The notes beneath the pieces were generated by a model. The model was given only the letters and a program-made list of their open reading frames with translations, was not told the origin of the DNA and did not search any database. The position numbers were made by a program, and so were the translations under genes. Below, one piece after another: positions 8,863 to 33,029 of a DNA stretch of 64,000 nucleotides (its first letter is position 1; each line of letters begins with the position of its first letter). The DNA is from Mobula hypostoma (Eukaryota). The DNA lies in NCBI RefSeq assembly GCF_963921235.1, contig NC_086097.1, forward strand, positions 132,744,001 to 132,808,000, given 5' to 3'.

Positions 8863-9363
8863 TGTAACATGAAGGGTAACCTGCTGGTTGAAAGCCACCT
8901 CTGTCATATCAGCTGCTAATTGACCTTTCAAAGGATGCAGCAGCTCTCTCTCCAATTGGCTGGCTTCTGTTTCTGGGCACCCCAGGGGTGTCAGAATAGC
9001 ACGTGCAAGAGCCTCGGTATCTTTCCGCTAGGGGCCCTTCTTCAGACTGGGTCACGGCCAGGACTGGAAAGCTGTTGGGAAAGTGTGCTGCAGAAAGAAG
9101 GACATACATCCACACTTGAATAGGAACCTGTTTGCTGTAGTCATAGTTGTGTAAACTGGGGAACATAACCAAGTACTTGAATGAGTCAGAAATGTTATTG
9201 AATGTTTAATGTTGTAGTTTTGTAACTTAGAAGGATTAGCTAAGTATCTGTTTGACTTAGATGTTCGGTTGAGTATTTCACTGTTTGTTTGTAAATAAGT
9301 AGTCAACGTGCTCACTTGTAAACAATGTCTTCTGTCCCACTTACTGAATCCACAAATCTGCTC
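8863..9363 (+). mobile_element. Putative solo LTR related to the ERV LTR at 27040-27560
   Basis: Colinear shared blocks: tgtaacatga..tgctggttgaaagccac, gaatagcac, ttgggaaagtgtgctg, tgtttgacttagatgtt, tgtcttc. The 3' end is cut by a Rex1 fragment. Confidence 0.65.
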
Positions 9364-25703: not shown

Positions 25704-27039
25704 TCAAAGTTCAAAGTTCAGAGTAAATTTATTATCAAAGTACATATATGTCGCCATATACAACCCCGAGATTCATTTTCTTGCAGCCAGTCACAGTAAG
25801 TACAAGAAACACAACAGAATCAATGAAAGACCACACCCAAAAGAACAGACAAACAACCAATGTGCAAAATACACGCAGTGTGAAATACAAAAAGAAAGAA
25901 AACAAATAATAATAAATTAGCAATAAGTAACTAGAACATGAGATGAAGAGTCCTTGAAAGTGAGTCCACAGGTTGTCGGAAGAGTTCAGTGATGGAGCAG
26001 GTGAAGTTGAGTGAAGTTATTGTCTTCAGTTCAAGAGACTGATAGATGAGGGATAGCAACTGTTCATGGAGATATGGGCTCTGAGGCTCTGGTATCTTTT
26101 TCCTGGTAGCAATGAGAAGAGAGCATAGCGTGTATGGTAGGGGTCCTTAATGATAGCTGCTGCTTTCCTGCACCAGCACTCTATGTACATGTGCTCAATG
26201 ATGAGGAGAGCTTTACTCATGATGGATTGGGCTGTGTCCACTACTTCTTGTAGGCTTTTCCATTCAAGGGTATTGGTGCTTCCATACCCGGCCATGACAC
26301 AACCAGTCAATATACTCTCCATCACACATCTATATAAATTTGTCAACGTTTTAGGTGACATGCTGAATCTTTGCAAACTTCTAAGAAAGTAGAGGCACTG
26401 CCACGTTCTCTTTGTAATGGCACTTACATGCTGGATCCAGGACAGATCCTCTGAAATGATAACAACGAGGAATTGAAAGTTGCTGACCCTCTTCATTTTT
26501 GATCCCTCAATGAGGACTGCCTCATGGACCTCCAGTTTCCTCCTCCTGAAATCAAAAATCATCTCCTTGGTCTTGCTGACATTGAGTGAAAGGTTGTTTT
26601 GGGGGTGCCGCTCAGCCTAATTTTCAATCTCTCTTCTATATGCCAATTCACCTCTATCTTTGAATCAGCCGATGGTAGTGATGTCATCAACGAACTTAAA
26701 TATGGCATTGCAGTTGTGTGTAGCCTCATAATCATGAGTATAAAGTGAGTAGATCAAGGGGCTAAGCACTCAGTTGGGCTGAGGTGCAGTTGTGCTGATG
26801 GAAATTATAGACAGGATAGTATTGCCAATCCAAACTGACTGGGGTCTGCAAGTGAGGAAATCAAGTTGCATAAATAGGCATTCAGGCCTAGATATTGAAT
26901 CTTATGGATTAGTTTTAAGGAGATGATATTATTGAATGCTGAGCTGTAGTTGATAAAGAGCATACTGATCTCTGTATCTTGGCTGTTGTGTCCCAGGGCT
27001 TGGTGACATGTCAATGAAATGACCTCCATTGTTGACCAG
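25704..27039 (-). mobile_element. Rex1/Babar LINE RT C-terminus plus 3' UTR
   Basis: ORF 26026-26562 (DFRRRK..FQFL..ISEDLSW..LYFLRSL) and MLFINYSSAFNNII; (TTCAAAG)n tail. Cut at the ERV LTR. Confidence 0.9.
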
Positions 27040-27560
27040 TGTTACGTGATTATCTTACTTGCTGGTTGATAGTCACATCCACTGTGTTGGTTATTTGAAG
27101 GATGCAGCAGCTCCTTATCATTGGTTGTCTCATGTGCCGTACCACAGTTTCCAGTTCCAAGTGCTTCACGGGTATGAGAATAGCACATGTGAGAGACTCA
27201 CTCTCTTTCCTTTGTCTCCAGGAGCTCAACTTCACACTGAGGTCATAACCAGTGCTGAAGAACCATTGGGAAAGTGTGCTGAAGATATAGGAGGGCCCAC
27301 ACACACTTATAGCCAAGTATCTGTTTGTTGAAAGTTTAGTTTTGTGGTTGTATAACGTGGAAATACTTAAAGTTCCTGCTGAGTTTAAGGTGCTACTGAA
27401 TGTTTTGCATCATAGTTTTTGTAACTTTGGGTTGCTTTGTTGAGTACTTGTTTGACTTAGATGTTTGGTCAAATATTCTAATGTTTGTCTGCAAATAGTA
27501 GGTTAATATACTTAATCGTAATCACTGTCTTCCAACCCACGAGCCTGCTTCTTCAGAACA
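27040..27560 (+). mobile_element. 5' LTR of a class III-like endogenous retrovirus
   Basis: TGTT...AACA termini, followed after 2 nt by a PBS-like sequence and then gag-like sequence; related copy at 8863. Confidence 0.7.
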
Positions 27561-27562
27561 TT

Positions 27563-27581
27563 TGGCACAATAAGGAGGGTT
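27563..27581 (+). other. Primer-binding site, tRNA-Ser-like (decayed)
   Basis: tggcacaataaggagggtt matches 14/19 of TGGCGCAGCGAGCAGGGTT (tRNA-Ser 3' complement, recalled from memory); most mismatches are transitions, several at CpGs. Confidence 0.55.
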
Positions 27582-27599
27582 CAGTGGTTGGACTGAAGA

Positions 27600-29740
27600 T
27601 GAATCTCTTTTGAAGCTTATATGAGAGAGAAGGTTATGTAAGACCATCAACAGTGTGGGATTTGGGAGTCTTGCCAACCTGCATGCTGCAGGACACCTGT
27701 AGACTGATCAGACAAGTTGCGACTCCCACAGGTTGAGAATTGGACATCACATTGTGTCCGTACTTAATAAGGCAGGGTTCCCCAAGAGGAAAGGGAGCCA
27801 AAAGGATGCTTTCTGGCAGTTGGCAGCTATCGTAAGTCACCACAAGAGACGATTGCACAGAGAGAGCAGGAGACAGTAAGTCTCAAGAATGAGGTGGAAG
27901 CATTACAAGAGTGCCGTACCACCATTTTGGAAGCTCCCTGTTTGGTACTGCCTTGGGCCAAAGAGCTAGAAGACAAGAGTGTGGCGACAGCCTGTCGGCT
28001 AATAACGGTGCAGTAATTAGAGGCTGTCTGATGGGCTAAATGGCAATCAGATCCCATTCACATCCGATCTTGGTGCTGTGGGGAGATGATCCCATGGGGA
28101 TGGGGATGTCTGGCTGGATGGTGAGGGTGCGAAAGAGAGGGTAGAGTGGAGTCCTTTGATTCTCCCTGAAAATGTTCACTCTCTCTCCAACACACTTGAG
28201 ACAGTACTGGCCAGACCAGTGACCACACGGTCCCATACCCAGCATGGGATCTTCAATCCATGACCTTGTTGGCCCTCAAGAGAGAGAAGGAAGGCCAGGA
28301 ACCTGTAGGGTGTAATAAATGGCCCCTCCAAGACAATAGGGATCAAAGAATTCTCCACTAAGATATGGTGGGATTAGGGGATAGGTAGAGACAGAAGCCA
28401 GGAAAGCCTCTGGCCATGTGGTTGTTGAGGATATGGGATGAGGATGTACCAGCATGAGTTTACCTAATCGAGGGATGAGCTTATAAGGGGGACGTCATCT
28501 CAATATGTGATCAATAATGCTCTGCGAATGCCAATTGCTTCCCATTAGGGTCTGAGTTTGAGGCCTCTGTCGGTCAGAGATGACGATGGATATTGCATCC
28601 TAGCTGTCTAGATACACAAGCCTGGGCAGTACAATATGGAGAGCAAGCTGTTACCATGTAGCAAGCTCCCCCTCTCCACACATCTGATGAACCCAAAGGA
28701 ACAGCAGAAACTGATACAGTTCGGTACCAGCAGCATCGCAGAAGTTGTCAGTCAGCATTGAACTCAACGTAGGACTGCCTTAGAGACTCCAGCTCTAGAT
28801 TTTTTTTCCTTCAAGGTTTACTCCCGAGGCCTTCCACATGAGTGGGTATAGTCGCAAGGCAGTGGAGGATTGAGATCAGAGTTTTCCGTCTCCTAGATGA
28901 GCTGCCGAGCCCCATCTGCCCAAGGCCACTGGTTTTAAGGTGCCTGAAACATGCCTTTGCCCCTTCTCCTGTCAGTAGGAACGGTTCTGTCAGGCTTAGT
29001 AGCTAAGCACACGTGAAGGCCAGGAGCTGGACTTGGTTCTTCGAGGCTATTTGAGGTGCACGCCATTGGGAGTATTGAATAGGTAGCGGGAGCTTACCCC
29101 CATTACCACCCCCGGCTGTAATAGCCTTGAGGAATCTCCATAAGAGTAATGCATTGTTATGGGATCGGATGGCTGCAGCAGTCAGGGTCAGGTATCTTCC
29201 CTCCTGAGAATGAGATTCAAAGCCTGAGGCGAAGAGGAGCACAGTAGAGGAAGGGACAATAGCCCTTCACCAGTGTGTTCAAACTGTGATAGTGATAGAC
29301 AGCCGGTGGATTCTGAACTTAGCCCCGCCATGATAGGGCATTTGTTTACAGCACGGCTCCCTGCTTGGAAGGAGTGGTACTGTTTTTAATGGGACCAGCA
29401 GCTGGATGTCCCTAAATGCAGCCATTTGGTTGCTGGAAGGGTTGGAGTACGTGGAAGAGGGCAGGCGCAGACAGGTACAGAAGTTGTACAAGTAAATAGG
29501 GAGTAGGGGATCCCATGTGACCTGTACGGAGATGTTTCTAGCACAGCTCAGAGCCGGGGTACTGAAGGAGCAGGTAAATGGGGTTCCCATTCCACACCTC
29601 TATGCCACGTGGTTGGAACACTGCCAGGGAAGAGAGGTTAGGAGGCTGTTGAGGGAGAAGGGTCATTCTTCATGTCCTTTACTGATAAGGGCGCCTTCTG
29701 CCCTCTGCTTGATTCCTTACATTCCGTTCAGGAATCCCTA
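27600..29740 (+). pseudogene. gag: Decayed ERV-L/ERV-S-like gag
   Basis: DGDVWLD (28099-28119), RQKPGKPLAMWLLRIWDE (28389-28442), LLWDRMAAAVRVRY..STVEEG (29154-29255) and EMFLAQLRAGVLKEQVNGVP (ORF 29517), in the order of class III Gag motifs. Stops and frameshifts; SINE insertion. Confidence 0.72.
28515..29120 (-). mobile_element. RTE-related non-autonomous (SINE-like) element inserted in ERV gag
   Basis: Non-coding ~600 bp with blocks resembling RTE/Expander 5' UTRs (tttccgtctcctagatgagctgcc; gtatagtcgcaaggcag). Gag-like motifs resume after it. Confidence 0.6.
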
Positions 29741-29918
29741 AATCCCTTGCTGGAAGCTCTGCAAAAGGCACAGGTGATCCTTTAGTGACAGCAGGGGTTG
29801 TTGGGTGTCACCTTCCCACCCCATCCCCATAAGGAGGGGGTCATTCACCCTTCTCACCCTTCCCCCATAATAAAATGTGAATGGTTTGAGTTCAGAAAAA
29901 ATGTTGCATGAAGTGTGG

Positions 29919-29921
<3 letters not shown>

Positions 29922-29965
<44 letters not shown>
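29922..29965. repeat. (TG)n microsatellite
   Basis: Direct inspection. Confidence 0.95.
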
Positions 29966-29966
<1 letters not shown>

Positions 29967-30439
29967 ACGTGTGCACAAAGTCTATCTTGTATTTATTAAA
30001 TCTGCATCAGAAGGGTGCTTGAATTAATTCTATCCTTCAGCGGAAAAGGTGACAGTGAAAGATTTTGTTACTGGATGAACTTGCTGGAGGAGGTTTTATC
30101 TTTTAAGAGGACTATGCCTTCAAGTGGTTAAGTGAAGGTGTTGGGGGCCCCCATCCAGCAGTCTCTTCTTTTCCTTCGATCTTTGGAAAATGTGTTATTT
30201 TTTTCACTGTGACAATTAACTGTTCATTCTAAGTTTTGCAGTTACTTGCAAAGGTTACCGGCCATGAAAAATACAGTTAAGGTAATGGAAATCTGTGCAT
30301 CTTTATTCTGAAAATAACATCCCCACATATCAGACAGAAGTGGGCATTTGGGGAAATTGTTCATTGGTGGACAGTTAAATTGGGAATTTGGAATTCATAT
30401 TTTGGAAGATTAGAAGATTTGGAGACTAATCCGAGAAGT

Positions 30440-31990
30440 TACATACACAAAATGCTGGAGGAACTCAACAGGTCAGGCAGTATCTATGGAAAAGAGTACG
30501 GTGGATGTTTTGGTCCGAGACCCTTCAGCAGGATTGGAGAAAAAATAATGAGGGGTAGAGTTGAAAGGTGGGGGGAAGGGAGGGAGAAACACAAGGTGAT
30601 AGGTGAAACCAGAAGGAGAAGTGGTGAAGAAAAGAGGTCCTCTTATTTGCTCCTCAAACAGGTCCCACTAAAGAGCTCCAGGCCATTGTCTCCCACATCA
30701 TTAGTGACCTTATTAGTTCTGGGGCTCTCCCATCCACTGCCACTAAACTCATAGTTTTCACACCCTGCACCTCCCACTTCTACCTCCATTCTACCTCCTA
30801 TCCAAGGACCACACACACATCAAATGAAGAAATTCTCAGAAGAGCCCAAGCAGTTCGATCACTCATACCAACAATAAGAGAAAGACAACTCAGATTCCTA
30901 GGACACATCATGTGGAAAGATGAACTAGAAAAACTCATACTCTCTGGAAAGATTGAGGGGAGTAAACCTAGAGGAAGACCTCGGTTTATGTACATCAAAA
31001 GCATAGCCAGGTGGCTACACATCGAGGAAATGGAAGTCATCCAAAAAATGAGGGGTAGATCTATATGGAAAACCATGGTCACCGAAGTCCGCATCGGATA
31101 TGGTACCTAGACAGACAGACAGATCCAAGATCCACAAACCCGCTTGTCCATATAGACGCATTATTTCAGCTTGTTCCTACCTCACTAAAACTACATACCC
31201 CCTGCTTTATCCGTCCTAGTTCAATCCCTTCCTACCCACATCCATGACACTTCACATGCTCTGAATCTTTTCAATGGATTCAAGTTCCCTGGACCCCATC
31301 ATCTTATTTTTACTGAGGATGTCCAGTCCAGTCCAGTCTCCATCTCCCACCAGGAAGGCCTCAAAGCTCTTCATTTCTTTCTGGACACCAGACCCAACCA
31401 GTTCTCCTCCACCACCACTCTCCTCTGTCTTGTGGAACTTGTCCTCACTCTTAATAATTTATCCTTTGGCTCCTCCCACTTCCTGCGAACAAAGGTTTTA
31501 GCCATGGGCACTCGCATGGGTCCCAGCTATGCCTGCCTTTTTGTCAGCTATGTGAAATAGTCTATGTTCCAAGCCTATACTGTTGGCCATCCCCCACTTT
31601 TCTTACACTATAGCGATGACTGCATTGATGCTGTTTCCTGCACCCATGCTGAACTCGTCGACTTTATCCACTTTGCCACAAACTTTCACCCTGCCTTCAA
31701 ATTTTCCTGGTCCATTTCCGACACCTCCCTCCCCTTTCTCGATCTCTCTGTCTCTCTCTCTTATCTACTGATGTCTATTATAACCCCACAGATTCTCACA
31801 GCTACCTGGACTATACCTCTTCCCACTCAATTACTTGTAACAATGCTGTCCCTTTCTCTTAATTCCTCTGTCTCTGTCACATCTCCGCTCAGGATGAGGC
31901 TTTTCATTCCAGAACAAAGGAGATGTCCCCCTTATTCAAAGAAGGGTACTTCCCTTCCTCTACCATCAACGCCAGCCTCAACTGCATCAC
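30440..31990 (+). mobile_element. Penelope-like element: inverted terminal segment (30440-~30635, minus) joined to an RT fragment (plus)
   Basis: acacaaaatgctggaggaactcaacaggtcaggcag terminus; RT motifs AMGTRMGPSYACLFV, LFLHYSDDCI and LPFLDLSV. Confidence 0.85.
30807..31122 (+). mobile_element. RTE LINE 3' end
   Basis: LRFLGHIM..LEKLILSGKIEGSKPRGRPR; (GACA)n tail; perfect 7-bp TSD ATCCAAG (30800-30806 / 31123-31129). Confidence 0.92.
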
Positions 31991-31994
31991 CTCA

Positions 31995-32505
31995 ATGCCC
32001 TGGATGAACAGCCTGCCTATGTTGGTTGGCATTGTAGGAAGGCTCTTAGAGAGACAGAAAGGTTTTGGATGATAGTGGTTCCCAGCATGGTACCACCAGA
32101 CTGTCCCGGGAACTGATATGGATGGCCTTAGATTACCAGCTTGTAAAGAAAGGTGGCACTTGTGCTGTTATCAGTCAAGAATGCCGCATTTGCATTCTGA
32201 ACGAGTCGTGGAACATCACTCACCTGGCTGATCACATCCGACAGTTAATGGATGATTTAAGGAAATGAGGGACCAATTCCATAGCTATTACACTCCTGGT
32301 GGGGGGTGGGGGGCGGGTGTAGCTGATGGCTTTTGGGGTGCTAGATGGTTGGTGGATTACTGTGGTACACTGGATGGTGACTGGGTGGTTTATATCACAG
32401 TGTATTGTATTTTTGTGGTTTTAGATGTGGTTTAGTGGGTGTTCGCAGGGTCATAGTAGTCTGAGAGCTGGATTGTCACGGTGTCGTGTCTTTCAAGGGG
32501 TGACA
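31995..32505 (+). pseudogene. env: Retroviral env TM-subunit remnant (gamma-type ISD / CX6CC) with downstream PPT
   Basis: WMALDYQLVKKGGTCAVISQECRIC (32119-32193) plus NES/NIT sequons; upstream HCRK-ALRETERFWMIVVP (decayed cleavage site / fusion peptide); downstream GT-rich hydrophobic stretch; AAGGGGTGAC at ~32495-32504. Confidence 0.8.
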
Positions 32506-33029
32506 GGTAATGTGACATGTAAAGGACTCAGTTTGCTGAAGGGTCTGTTTCTGTGTTGTATGACTCCATAAAAGCTAAAAATTACTTTGCAAGCAGATGG
32601 TGTGAGTCACTTTGCACCAGTCCCTGTGTACTGAGGACATCTGCTGGTATGGCCTCTCATTCACAGCTCAGTAGCACTGGCCCAGTTGTTTAATTCTGTA
32701 TTCCTGCAGTCTTTGTCATTAGGGTCTTTGAAAAAGCTGCTCTTTCTCAACTTCTGCCCGCATTTCCTTCTTTATGTAGCTGGCAAAAGCTTTGAGCTGC
32801 TAAAATAGTTTTACATTTTCTTTTGTTCATTCAATTGGTTGAATAAAACCACATTATTCACACAGTGAGGCCATTCAGCCGGGCTGCTCTGTGCTAGTAT
32901 TCATTCTCCACACAAACCTGCTCCTGCTTCTCTTTCATTCAGAGAGTTTCACCTTTCCATAGAACCTCGCACTCTCAGAACACCCCGTATGCACAGCTGA
33001 TGAAGCTCCTTTTAAGGTGAACTCTCTGT

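Follow-up and report, generated by a model that had tools for sequence, protein, structure and literature searches.

A stretch of 64,000 nucleotides of the Mobula hypostoma genome (NCBI RefSeq assembly GCF_963921235.1, contig NC_086097.1, positions 132,744,001 to 132,808,000 of the forward strand; hereafter the window) carries the remains of an endogenous retrovirus (ERV) that retains a long terminal repeat (LTR), a tRNA-Ser primer-binding site (PBS), gag, a non-coding spacer in the place of pro-pol and an env remnant. We interpret it as one dead class III ERV from a non-autonomous lineage that kept a selected Gag of its own, a reading to which we give a probability of roughly three in four. 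The original prediction, made from the sequence alone, had described the 5' half of a provirus. The element is instead nearly whole but pol-less: it extends to position 32515, with an env remnant, a polypurine tract (PPT) and the start of the 3' LTR present, and its pol is replaced by the spacer, not cut off. Plain coordinates refer to the window, and L numbers denote other loci of the same genome.

A pol-less subfamily with a shared spacer

We typed 80 copies, namely the window copy, 39 hand-picked from matches to the LTR, gag and other parts, and the 40 next-ranked gag matches. The spacer alone was found in 47 copies, pol remnants alone in 12, both in 3 and neither in 18, a ratio of 47:12 that overstates the spacer share since all copies were picked with the window's spacer-type sequence; the 40 rank-ordered copies by themselves comprise 27, 4, 1 and 8, respectively. 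In one of the copies scored for both (L059), the integrase (IN) is unrelated and lies 5 kb off. In L038 (2930-3480), the 5' half of the spacer is joined to an integrase end, and this locus is likely a recombinant between helper and passenger. L177 also scores for both spacer and pol.

The spacer is about 700 bp long, non-coding and homologous across two LTR subfamilies. Neither 58 pol proteins nor 20 pol-bearing loci yielded a match to it, and a decayed pol was rejected as its origin on these grounds. No source for it was found among 323 candidates, of which 40 were scored and a minority had their flanks inspected. The spacer copies also share an in-frame deletion in the transmembrane subunit (TM) of Env (123 bp relative to L106 and 111 bp relative to L091) that takes out the first heptad region. 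Among typable copies, 24 of 25 with the spacer have this deletion, compared with none of five with pol (Fisher p = 4e-5), and the window env remnant carries it at 32120/32121.

The genome also holds pol-bearing relatives with the same LTR (L028, L029, L091 and L103, all decayed), and these LTR copies enclose retroviral sequence, with gag, pol and env. L029 is 71%, 70% and 72% identical to the window element in LTR, gag and env, respectively, and carries remnants of reverse transcriptase (RT), RNase H and IN; L028, L031, L035, L060, L063, L091 and others also keep pieces of pol. A short tandem repeat marks the start of the protease region in the pol-bearing copy L060 (6900-7250). The many dispersed copies with one pol-less structure bounded by LTRs, PBS and PPT, together with pol-bearing relatives of the same LTR, are the features by which a non-autonomous element is recognized.

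In a gag tree of 59 copies, the spacer and pol labels cluster, requiring 7 changes against a mean of 14.1 for shuffled labels, with none of 200 shuffles as low, and 31 spacer-only copies form a ladder. Third codon positions account for 67/140, 36/68, 25/54 and 26/58 of the gag differences between groups (p 2e-4 to 0.035), as against 33-35% of private gag changes, and the group-level env differences display no such excess (14/44 and 8/32).

Besides the sampling bias noted above, several points weigh against this reading. The spacer copies are not monophyletic on the gag tree, where 6 changes are counted and the pol copies L058, L063, L169 and L190 lie among them. The four gag comparisons overlap one another, the contrast between gag and env is not significant in any single comparison (best p 0.07-0.08), and gag divergence nearly equals that of the spacer (0.151 versus 0.178). 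L026 combines a partial spacer with a whole TM, and the pol-bearing L092, which is outside the 80-copy set, has a larger and different TM deletion of its own. No intact helper with the same LTR family occurs among the loci fetched, and the window copy is devoid of RT, so that its RT placement is made by proxy of same-family copies.

The alternative that survives best, unlikely as we consider it, retains the same class III family and makes the spacer form a passenger repeatedly remade by recombination with complete viruses, as has been proposed for recKoRV; gag would then be refreshed from helpers, where selection would have acted, and the spacer element would have no useful protein. Consistent with such remaking, the gag tree requires 7 label changes where the minimum possible is 2, L058 and L063 are sister to the spacer ladder (support 83/99), L169 and L190 pair with spacer copies, L038 contains a recombinant junction, L177 scores for both sequences, and the spacer subfamilies differ in their LTR ends. 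Yet all 31 successive ladder copies are of the spacer type, the same steps are seen in the divergence of the spacer itself (0.10-0.18) and the TM deletion accompanies the spacer in both subfamilies, all of which argues against this scenario.

According to our preferred reading of a non-autonomous lineage with its own Gag, the ancestor would have possessed gag-pro-pol together with a gamma-type env, and would have lost pro-pol to the spacer as well as the first heptad repeat of TM, the latter loss likely ending fusion. The element would have been copied inside germ cells, with tRNA-Ser priming its RNA; Gag was likely of its own making, and protease, RT and integrase presumably came from helpers that mobilized it in trans and with which it may have recombined at times. 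After insertion, the window copy, which is dead, would have decayed neutrally and received further insertions. A bolder extension, for which we see the chances as evenly balanced, regards the subfamily as the rays' own counterpart of the mammalian MaLR elements: a spacer would have substituted for pro-pol, the Env fusion core would have been lost, the element would have gone on producing a capsid of its own under purifying selection through the ladder of subfamilies as new LTRs were acquired, and the helper would have been outnumbered. Such a subfamily would preserve, within a class III clade specific to batoids, a stage on the way from an ERV-S-like virus with an envelope to a parasite of the MaLR kind.

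Class III affinities of Gag and reverse transcriptase

All five peptide motifs that had been predicted for Gag are located at the places and in the order proposed (Table 1); their description as spread over frames applies only in part, since four of the five share a single frame. Pfam has no model for this Gag: four open gag stretches of relatives reached at most 11.5 bits and four window pieces gave no match. Gag_p30 matched neither the genome nor the controls and is hence uninformative. Word-indexed protein searches recovered only 3 and 2 Gag relatives, and an exhaustive profile search was needed. A nine-row Gag profile, built from seven open stretches of relatives in the genome and two database proteins, retrieved 399 proteins at E ≤ 0.001 in this exhaustive search. 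These include an Fv1 restriction factor from a rodent (E 8e-19); Fv1 originated from MERV-L gag (PMC4977317). The 20 Gag matches that were looked up also comprise Fv1-like proteins from chinchilla, axolotl, sturgeon and Narcine, an electric ray.

A profile of 140 database proteins scored the window gag at 25.9 and 16.4 bits, above all 36 controls (16 other window stretches and 20 shuffles, at most 0 bits), in a test that is not fully independent as the 140 proteins were found via genome relatives of the window gag. The class III Gag match that the original prediction called for is thereby in hand. Two database gene models harbor class III gag sequence, one from Narcine named as a SPACA9 isoform (P0001) and one from an owl named as an AMFR isoform (P0003), which may reflect either exonization or misannotation.

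A capsid-like fold is predicted for the open gag frame of the relative L100. The model of its capsid region has a predicted local distance difference test score (pLDDT) of 88, and the top 14 rows of its VIA-align comparison are all retroviral or retrotransposon-derived capsids, at modest Z values of 5.0-7.2; no Foldseek match was obtained at E ≤ 0.001. A first attempt at the fold, using nine rows, was poor (mean pLDDT 50).

We built an RT tree of 42 rows, after removal of 27 of 69 rows as short, long-branch or near-duplicate/redundant. Five same-family RTs form a clade (support 100/99); four of these copies match the window DNA directly and L095 does not. The clade joins RTs from Hemitrygon, Hypanus and Narcine and two other families of the same genome (97/95), and the nearest named relatives are thus batoids, in keeping with the cartilaginous host that had been proposed. 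Around the batoid clade lies a group of elements from tetrapods, teleosts and white shark (98/98), internally unresolved, from which the class I ERVs of the genome and a Gypsy RT are excluded, with the proviso that all rows were aligned to a single class III protein, a choice that may favor a class III grouping; a quick tree of all 69 rows agrees. Within that group, the RT from white shark clusters with those of teleosts and outside the batoid clade. We take the labels of the class I and Gypsy rows to be correct, and the baboon RT, which we likewise take to be of HERV-L type, occupies a separate branch of the same unresolved group.

Two other ERV families of the genome were noted. A younger class III family (L087, L100-L102 and L088-L090) has long open gag and RT stretches, and in L088-L090 a 27-codon tandem repeat multiplies the YIDD motif. 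A young class I family (L127-L146), which served as RT outgroup, has partly open gag and pol and open env frames of 450-560 codons (for example, L128:7462-9132 and L131:880-2553).

The window element is therefore very probably a class III (ERV-L/ERV-S-like) ERV. Within that class, the ERV-S-like lineage of the original prediction is one candidate beside ERV-L, as judged from trees that contain no SnRV, foamy, HERV-S or XtERV-S sequence. An ERV-L proper has a dUTPase after IN and no env; an env is present here, and dUTPase-bearing probes found no match to that region in the pol copies of the family, which is a weak test.

It is improbable that the family is instead SnRV-like, from the other branch of clade Huo that is known from the elephant shark, where SnRV-like and epsilon-like ERVs have been described (Han 2015, PMC4422223). 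The composition of the RT trees leaves room for this placement, and Chen et al. term class III, gamma-env anamniote elements 'SnRV-related' (bioRxiv 10.1101/2021.11.23.469661). Against it, Gag finds its relatives in Fv1 and proteins like it, eight pol-bearing relatives, though decayed, show no strict Cys-His box pattern bar one antisense match, and the Ser PBS, the 5-bp target-site duplication (TSD) and the CWIC motif of the surface subunit (SU) fit the description of XtERV-S.

Long terminal repeats, primer site and dispersal

The 521-bp TGTT...AACA segment of the original prediction is a true LTR, as its ends coincide with those of the LTRs of other copies (TGTAAT...GTAACA). The LTR yielded 814 first-look candidates in the 3.48-Gb genome; among the 40 scored, the 39 besides the window's own are 72-84% identical to it. 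Of 19 LTR copies with both ends, 6 have an exact 5-bp TSD and 12 have one with at most one mismatch, three 5' LTRs followed by a PBS being scored as misses, and lengths of 3, 4, 6 and 7 bp gave no exact duplication in the same set. TGT...ACA ends combined with a 5-bp TSD characterize class III elements, as stated in PMC8278194.

Priming by tRNA-Ser, also predicted, is borne out: the decayed window PBS agrees with the 3' ends of host tRNA-Ser genes at 13 of 18 positions, and the range over 16 copies against Ser(CGA/TGA) is 11-17 of 18, in a comparison that covered Ser tRNAs and one Ile tRNA, and only 5 of 20,000 random window positions score at least 13/18. In L035 (923-952) and L038 (1147-1176), the PBS fits tRNA-Ser(AGA) better (14/18) than Ser(CGA/TGA), a possible primer switch inside the family.

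The paired LTRs of single copies differ by Kimura two-parameter distances of 0.18-0.33 (11 pairs). The shark rate assumed by Han 2015 (PMC4422223) would translate into 410-750 million years, which is implausibly old and was rejected, and the mammalian rate quoted in the same paper into 41-75 million years; neither was adopted as a date, and the element is described as old but undated. A second, solo LTR of the same family lies at 8863-9362 (+) of the window, has a decayed 3' end and is about 70% identical to the LTRs of L028, L029 and L030.

The spacer copies are found on many contigs with differing flanks, and their branching is near star-like. These properties bear on the notion, which we regard as very improbable, that the pol-less copies are independent post-integration deletions or duplications of one locus and were never mobile as such. 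Many copies do have private deletions, and 18 of the 80 lack both spacer and pol. The spacer, however, is extra sequence not found in the 20 pol-bearing loci, and the spacer and TM junction are common to unrelated sites, which together with the dispersal largely refutes this account.

Envelope

The env of the pol-bearing copies is short and combines CWIC close to the beginning of SU (seen in L029) with a basic cleavage site, an ISD (immunosuppressive domain) and also a cysteine loop. The env of sister copies is thus of the gamma type (SU CXXC, ISD and CX6CC), as in ERV-S-type elements. Pfam backing is weak: one of four TM pieces matches TLV_coat (sister copy L029, E 0.00077, below the curated cut-off), and the window env piece alone has no Pfam match. 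A Gypsy-type or class I identity of the family can be practically dismissed: the TM is gamma-type and the best PDB sequence matches of a related RT are gammaretroviral (110 bits), with foamy next (92), but PDB matches include no ERV-L RT and Ty3 reaches only 61-64 bits, the RT tree splits the family from class I and Gypsy RT (98/98), class III elements with a class I env are a known pattern, and the Gag relatives and window Gag profile score also speak against it.

Anatomy of the window copy

We drew the anatomy of the window copy (Table 1) against the uninterrupted copies L021, L061 and L091. The insertion that splits gag had been placed at 28515-29120; its bounds are corrected in Table 1, and it is flanked by a 10-bp target duplication (8/10 identical). 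This repeat has 12,408 first-look candidates in the genome, the best 39 others being 82-85% identical, is missing from sister copies of the window element and has no Rfam match; nor did Rfam find anything real in 27000-32600. The window spacer contains a (TG)n run and lacks about 110 bp. Three env-5' probes had no match in 30436-31984, and no LTR end was found downstream in the window for the remaining 3' LTR.

Table 1. Features of the ERV in the window
Feature	Position	Strand	Remarks
5' target-site bases	27035..27039	+	family TSD is 5 bp; 3' partner gone with the 3' LTR
5' LTR, 521 bp, TGT...ACA	27040..27560	+	ends shared with LTRs of other copies; 11 copies with paired LTRs
Decayed tRNA-Ser PBS (13/18)	27563..27580	+	host tRNA-Ser genes; best sister copy 17/18
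gag 5' part (coiled-coil region, DGDVW motif, capsid start)	27599..28551, start approximate	+	stops, frameshifts
DGDVWLD motif	28099-28119		
RQKPGKPLAMWLLRIWDE motif	28389-28442		
Secondary insertion, ~580-bp high-copy repeat, class and orientation unassigned	28552..29137	+	duplication 28542-28551 / 29138-29147
gag 3' part (capsid)	29138..29800, end approximate	+	stops, frameshifts
LLWDRMAAAVRVRY motif	29154-29195		
TVEEG motif	29241-29255		
FLAQLRAGVLKEQVNGVP motif	29535-29588		
Non-coding T-rich spacer replacing pro-pol	~29830..30435	+	common to subfamily
Later repeat fragments (LINE/SINE-like by eye); env SU absent	30436..31984	.	blocks match other repeats
env remnant: SU end plus TM of gamma type (part of the ISD, cysteine loop, membrane anchor)	31985..32460	+	
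PPT-like run and first ~10 bases of 3' LTR (32506-32515)	32495..32515	+	

Relationship to known elements

The original prediction saw novelty in the host range, a premise that corresponds to the placement of HERVS/L-like elements in tetrapods by a 2016 review (PMC4977317). This novelty does not hold, as Xu et al. 2018 (PMC6001957) report clade Huo, including class III ERVs, in all major vertebrate lineages and list the whale-shark element Rh_ty_ERV3 beside HERVL, Murine_ERVL and HERVS in their S2 Fig, where the proximity is one of label order, not of branches. Since an ERV-L/S-like element of a shark has been in print since 2018, the host-range claim adds little, and only the stripped-down, pol-less subfamily looks new. 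In the literature searched, no account came up of a class III subfamily from a ray with a gag-spacer-env structure and no pol, although Dfam, Repbase or GyDB may already catalogue the family.

For paleovirology, our data add a batoid clade of class III ERVs that has many members and a gamma-type env. They suggest that cartilaginous fish independently saw the same change from a class III virus with an envelope into a parasite without pol for which the mammalian MaLRs are the best-known case. Screens seeded with pol or env would undercount this subfamily, because its copies have no pol and a shortened TM. If gag stayed selected without pol, the subfamily also bears on the cis advantage that defective ERVs may draw from their own Gag.

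Among published elements, Rh_ty_ERV3 resembles the family in its chondrichthyan host and, by eye, in the same series of Gag and capsid motifs; it differs from the window element in being a partial, pol-bearing element of a shark (PMC6001957). XtERV-S of Xenopus (Yedavalli et al. 2021, PMC8278194), compared by description only, likewise joins an ERV-L-type gag-pol to a class I TM and shares the tRNA-Ser PBS, the TGT...ACA LTR ends, the 5-bp TSD and CWIC near the SU start. It is young and intact, unlike the family, and carries a dUTPase region, to which no match was seen in the family's pol copies. Internally deleted copies accompany it within the same genome, as here, but what these are described as retaining is the PBS, leader and 5' gag along with the PPT, as opposed to an entire gag with spacer and env (PMC8278194). 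The HERV-S/HERV-L supergroup (Vargiu et al. 2016, PMC4724089) shares the class III pol and is without Gag zinc fingers, and in HERV-S the env is of class I and a dUTPase is missing; class III elements with a class I env are described there as a general pattern, and these elements differ from the family in being mammalian. The combination of a class III Pol with an env of class I also recurs in ERV-SA.a-Ppe, from an anamniote survey in which six cartilaginous fishes have gamma-type env ERVs (Chen et al., 10.1101/2021.11.23.469661); its host could be a batoid and the element could belong to the present lineage. A 2025 bird survey mined 13 cartilaginous genomes as well (PMC12287698).

As to the pol-less state, recKoRV1 (Lober et al. 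2018, PMC6112702) resembles the subfamily in that retroviral ends are kept around a replaced middle at many loci; it differs in being a gammaretrovirus in which just the gag leader and the end of env survive and whose middle has a known donor. Parallels also come from MaLR, ETn/MusD and IAP 1-delta-1 (Gagnier et al. 2019, PMC6466679), to which we liken the spacer subfamily; these LTR elements are non-autonomous, draw their enzymes from helpers and exceed the helper in number or in mobility. MaLRs are class III, and the deleted protein of IAP 1-delta-1 helps in cis (PMC6466679). The ray subfamily is not itself MaLR: in MaLRs only slight retroviral homology can still be traced, and ETn lacks coding capacity (PMC6466679), whereas a full-length gag and a near-complete env remain recognizable in the subfamily, and we infer that the mammalian MaLR, ETn and IAP elements arose separately from it.

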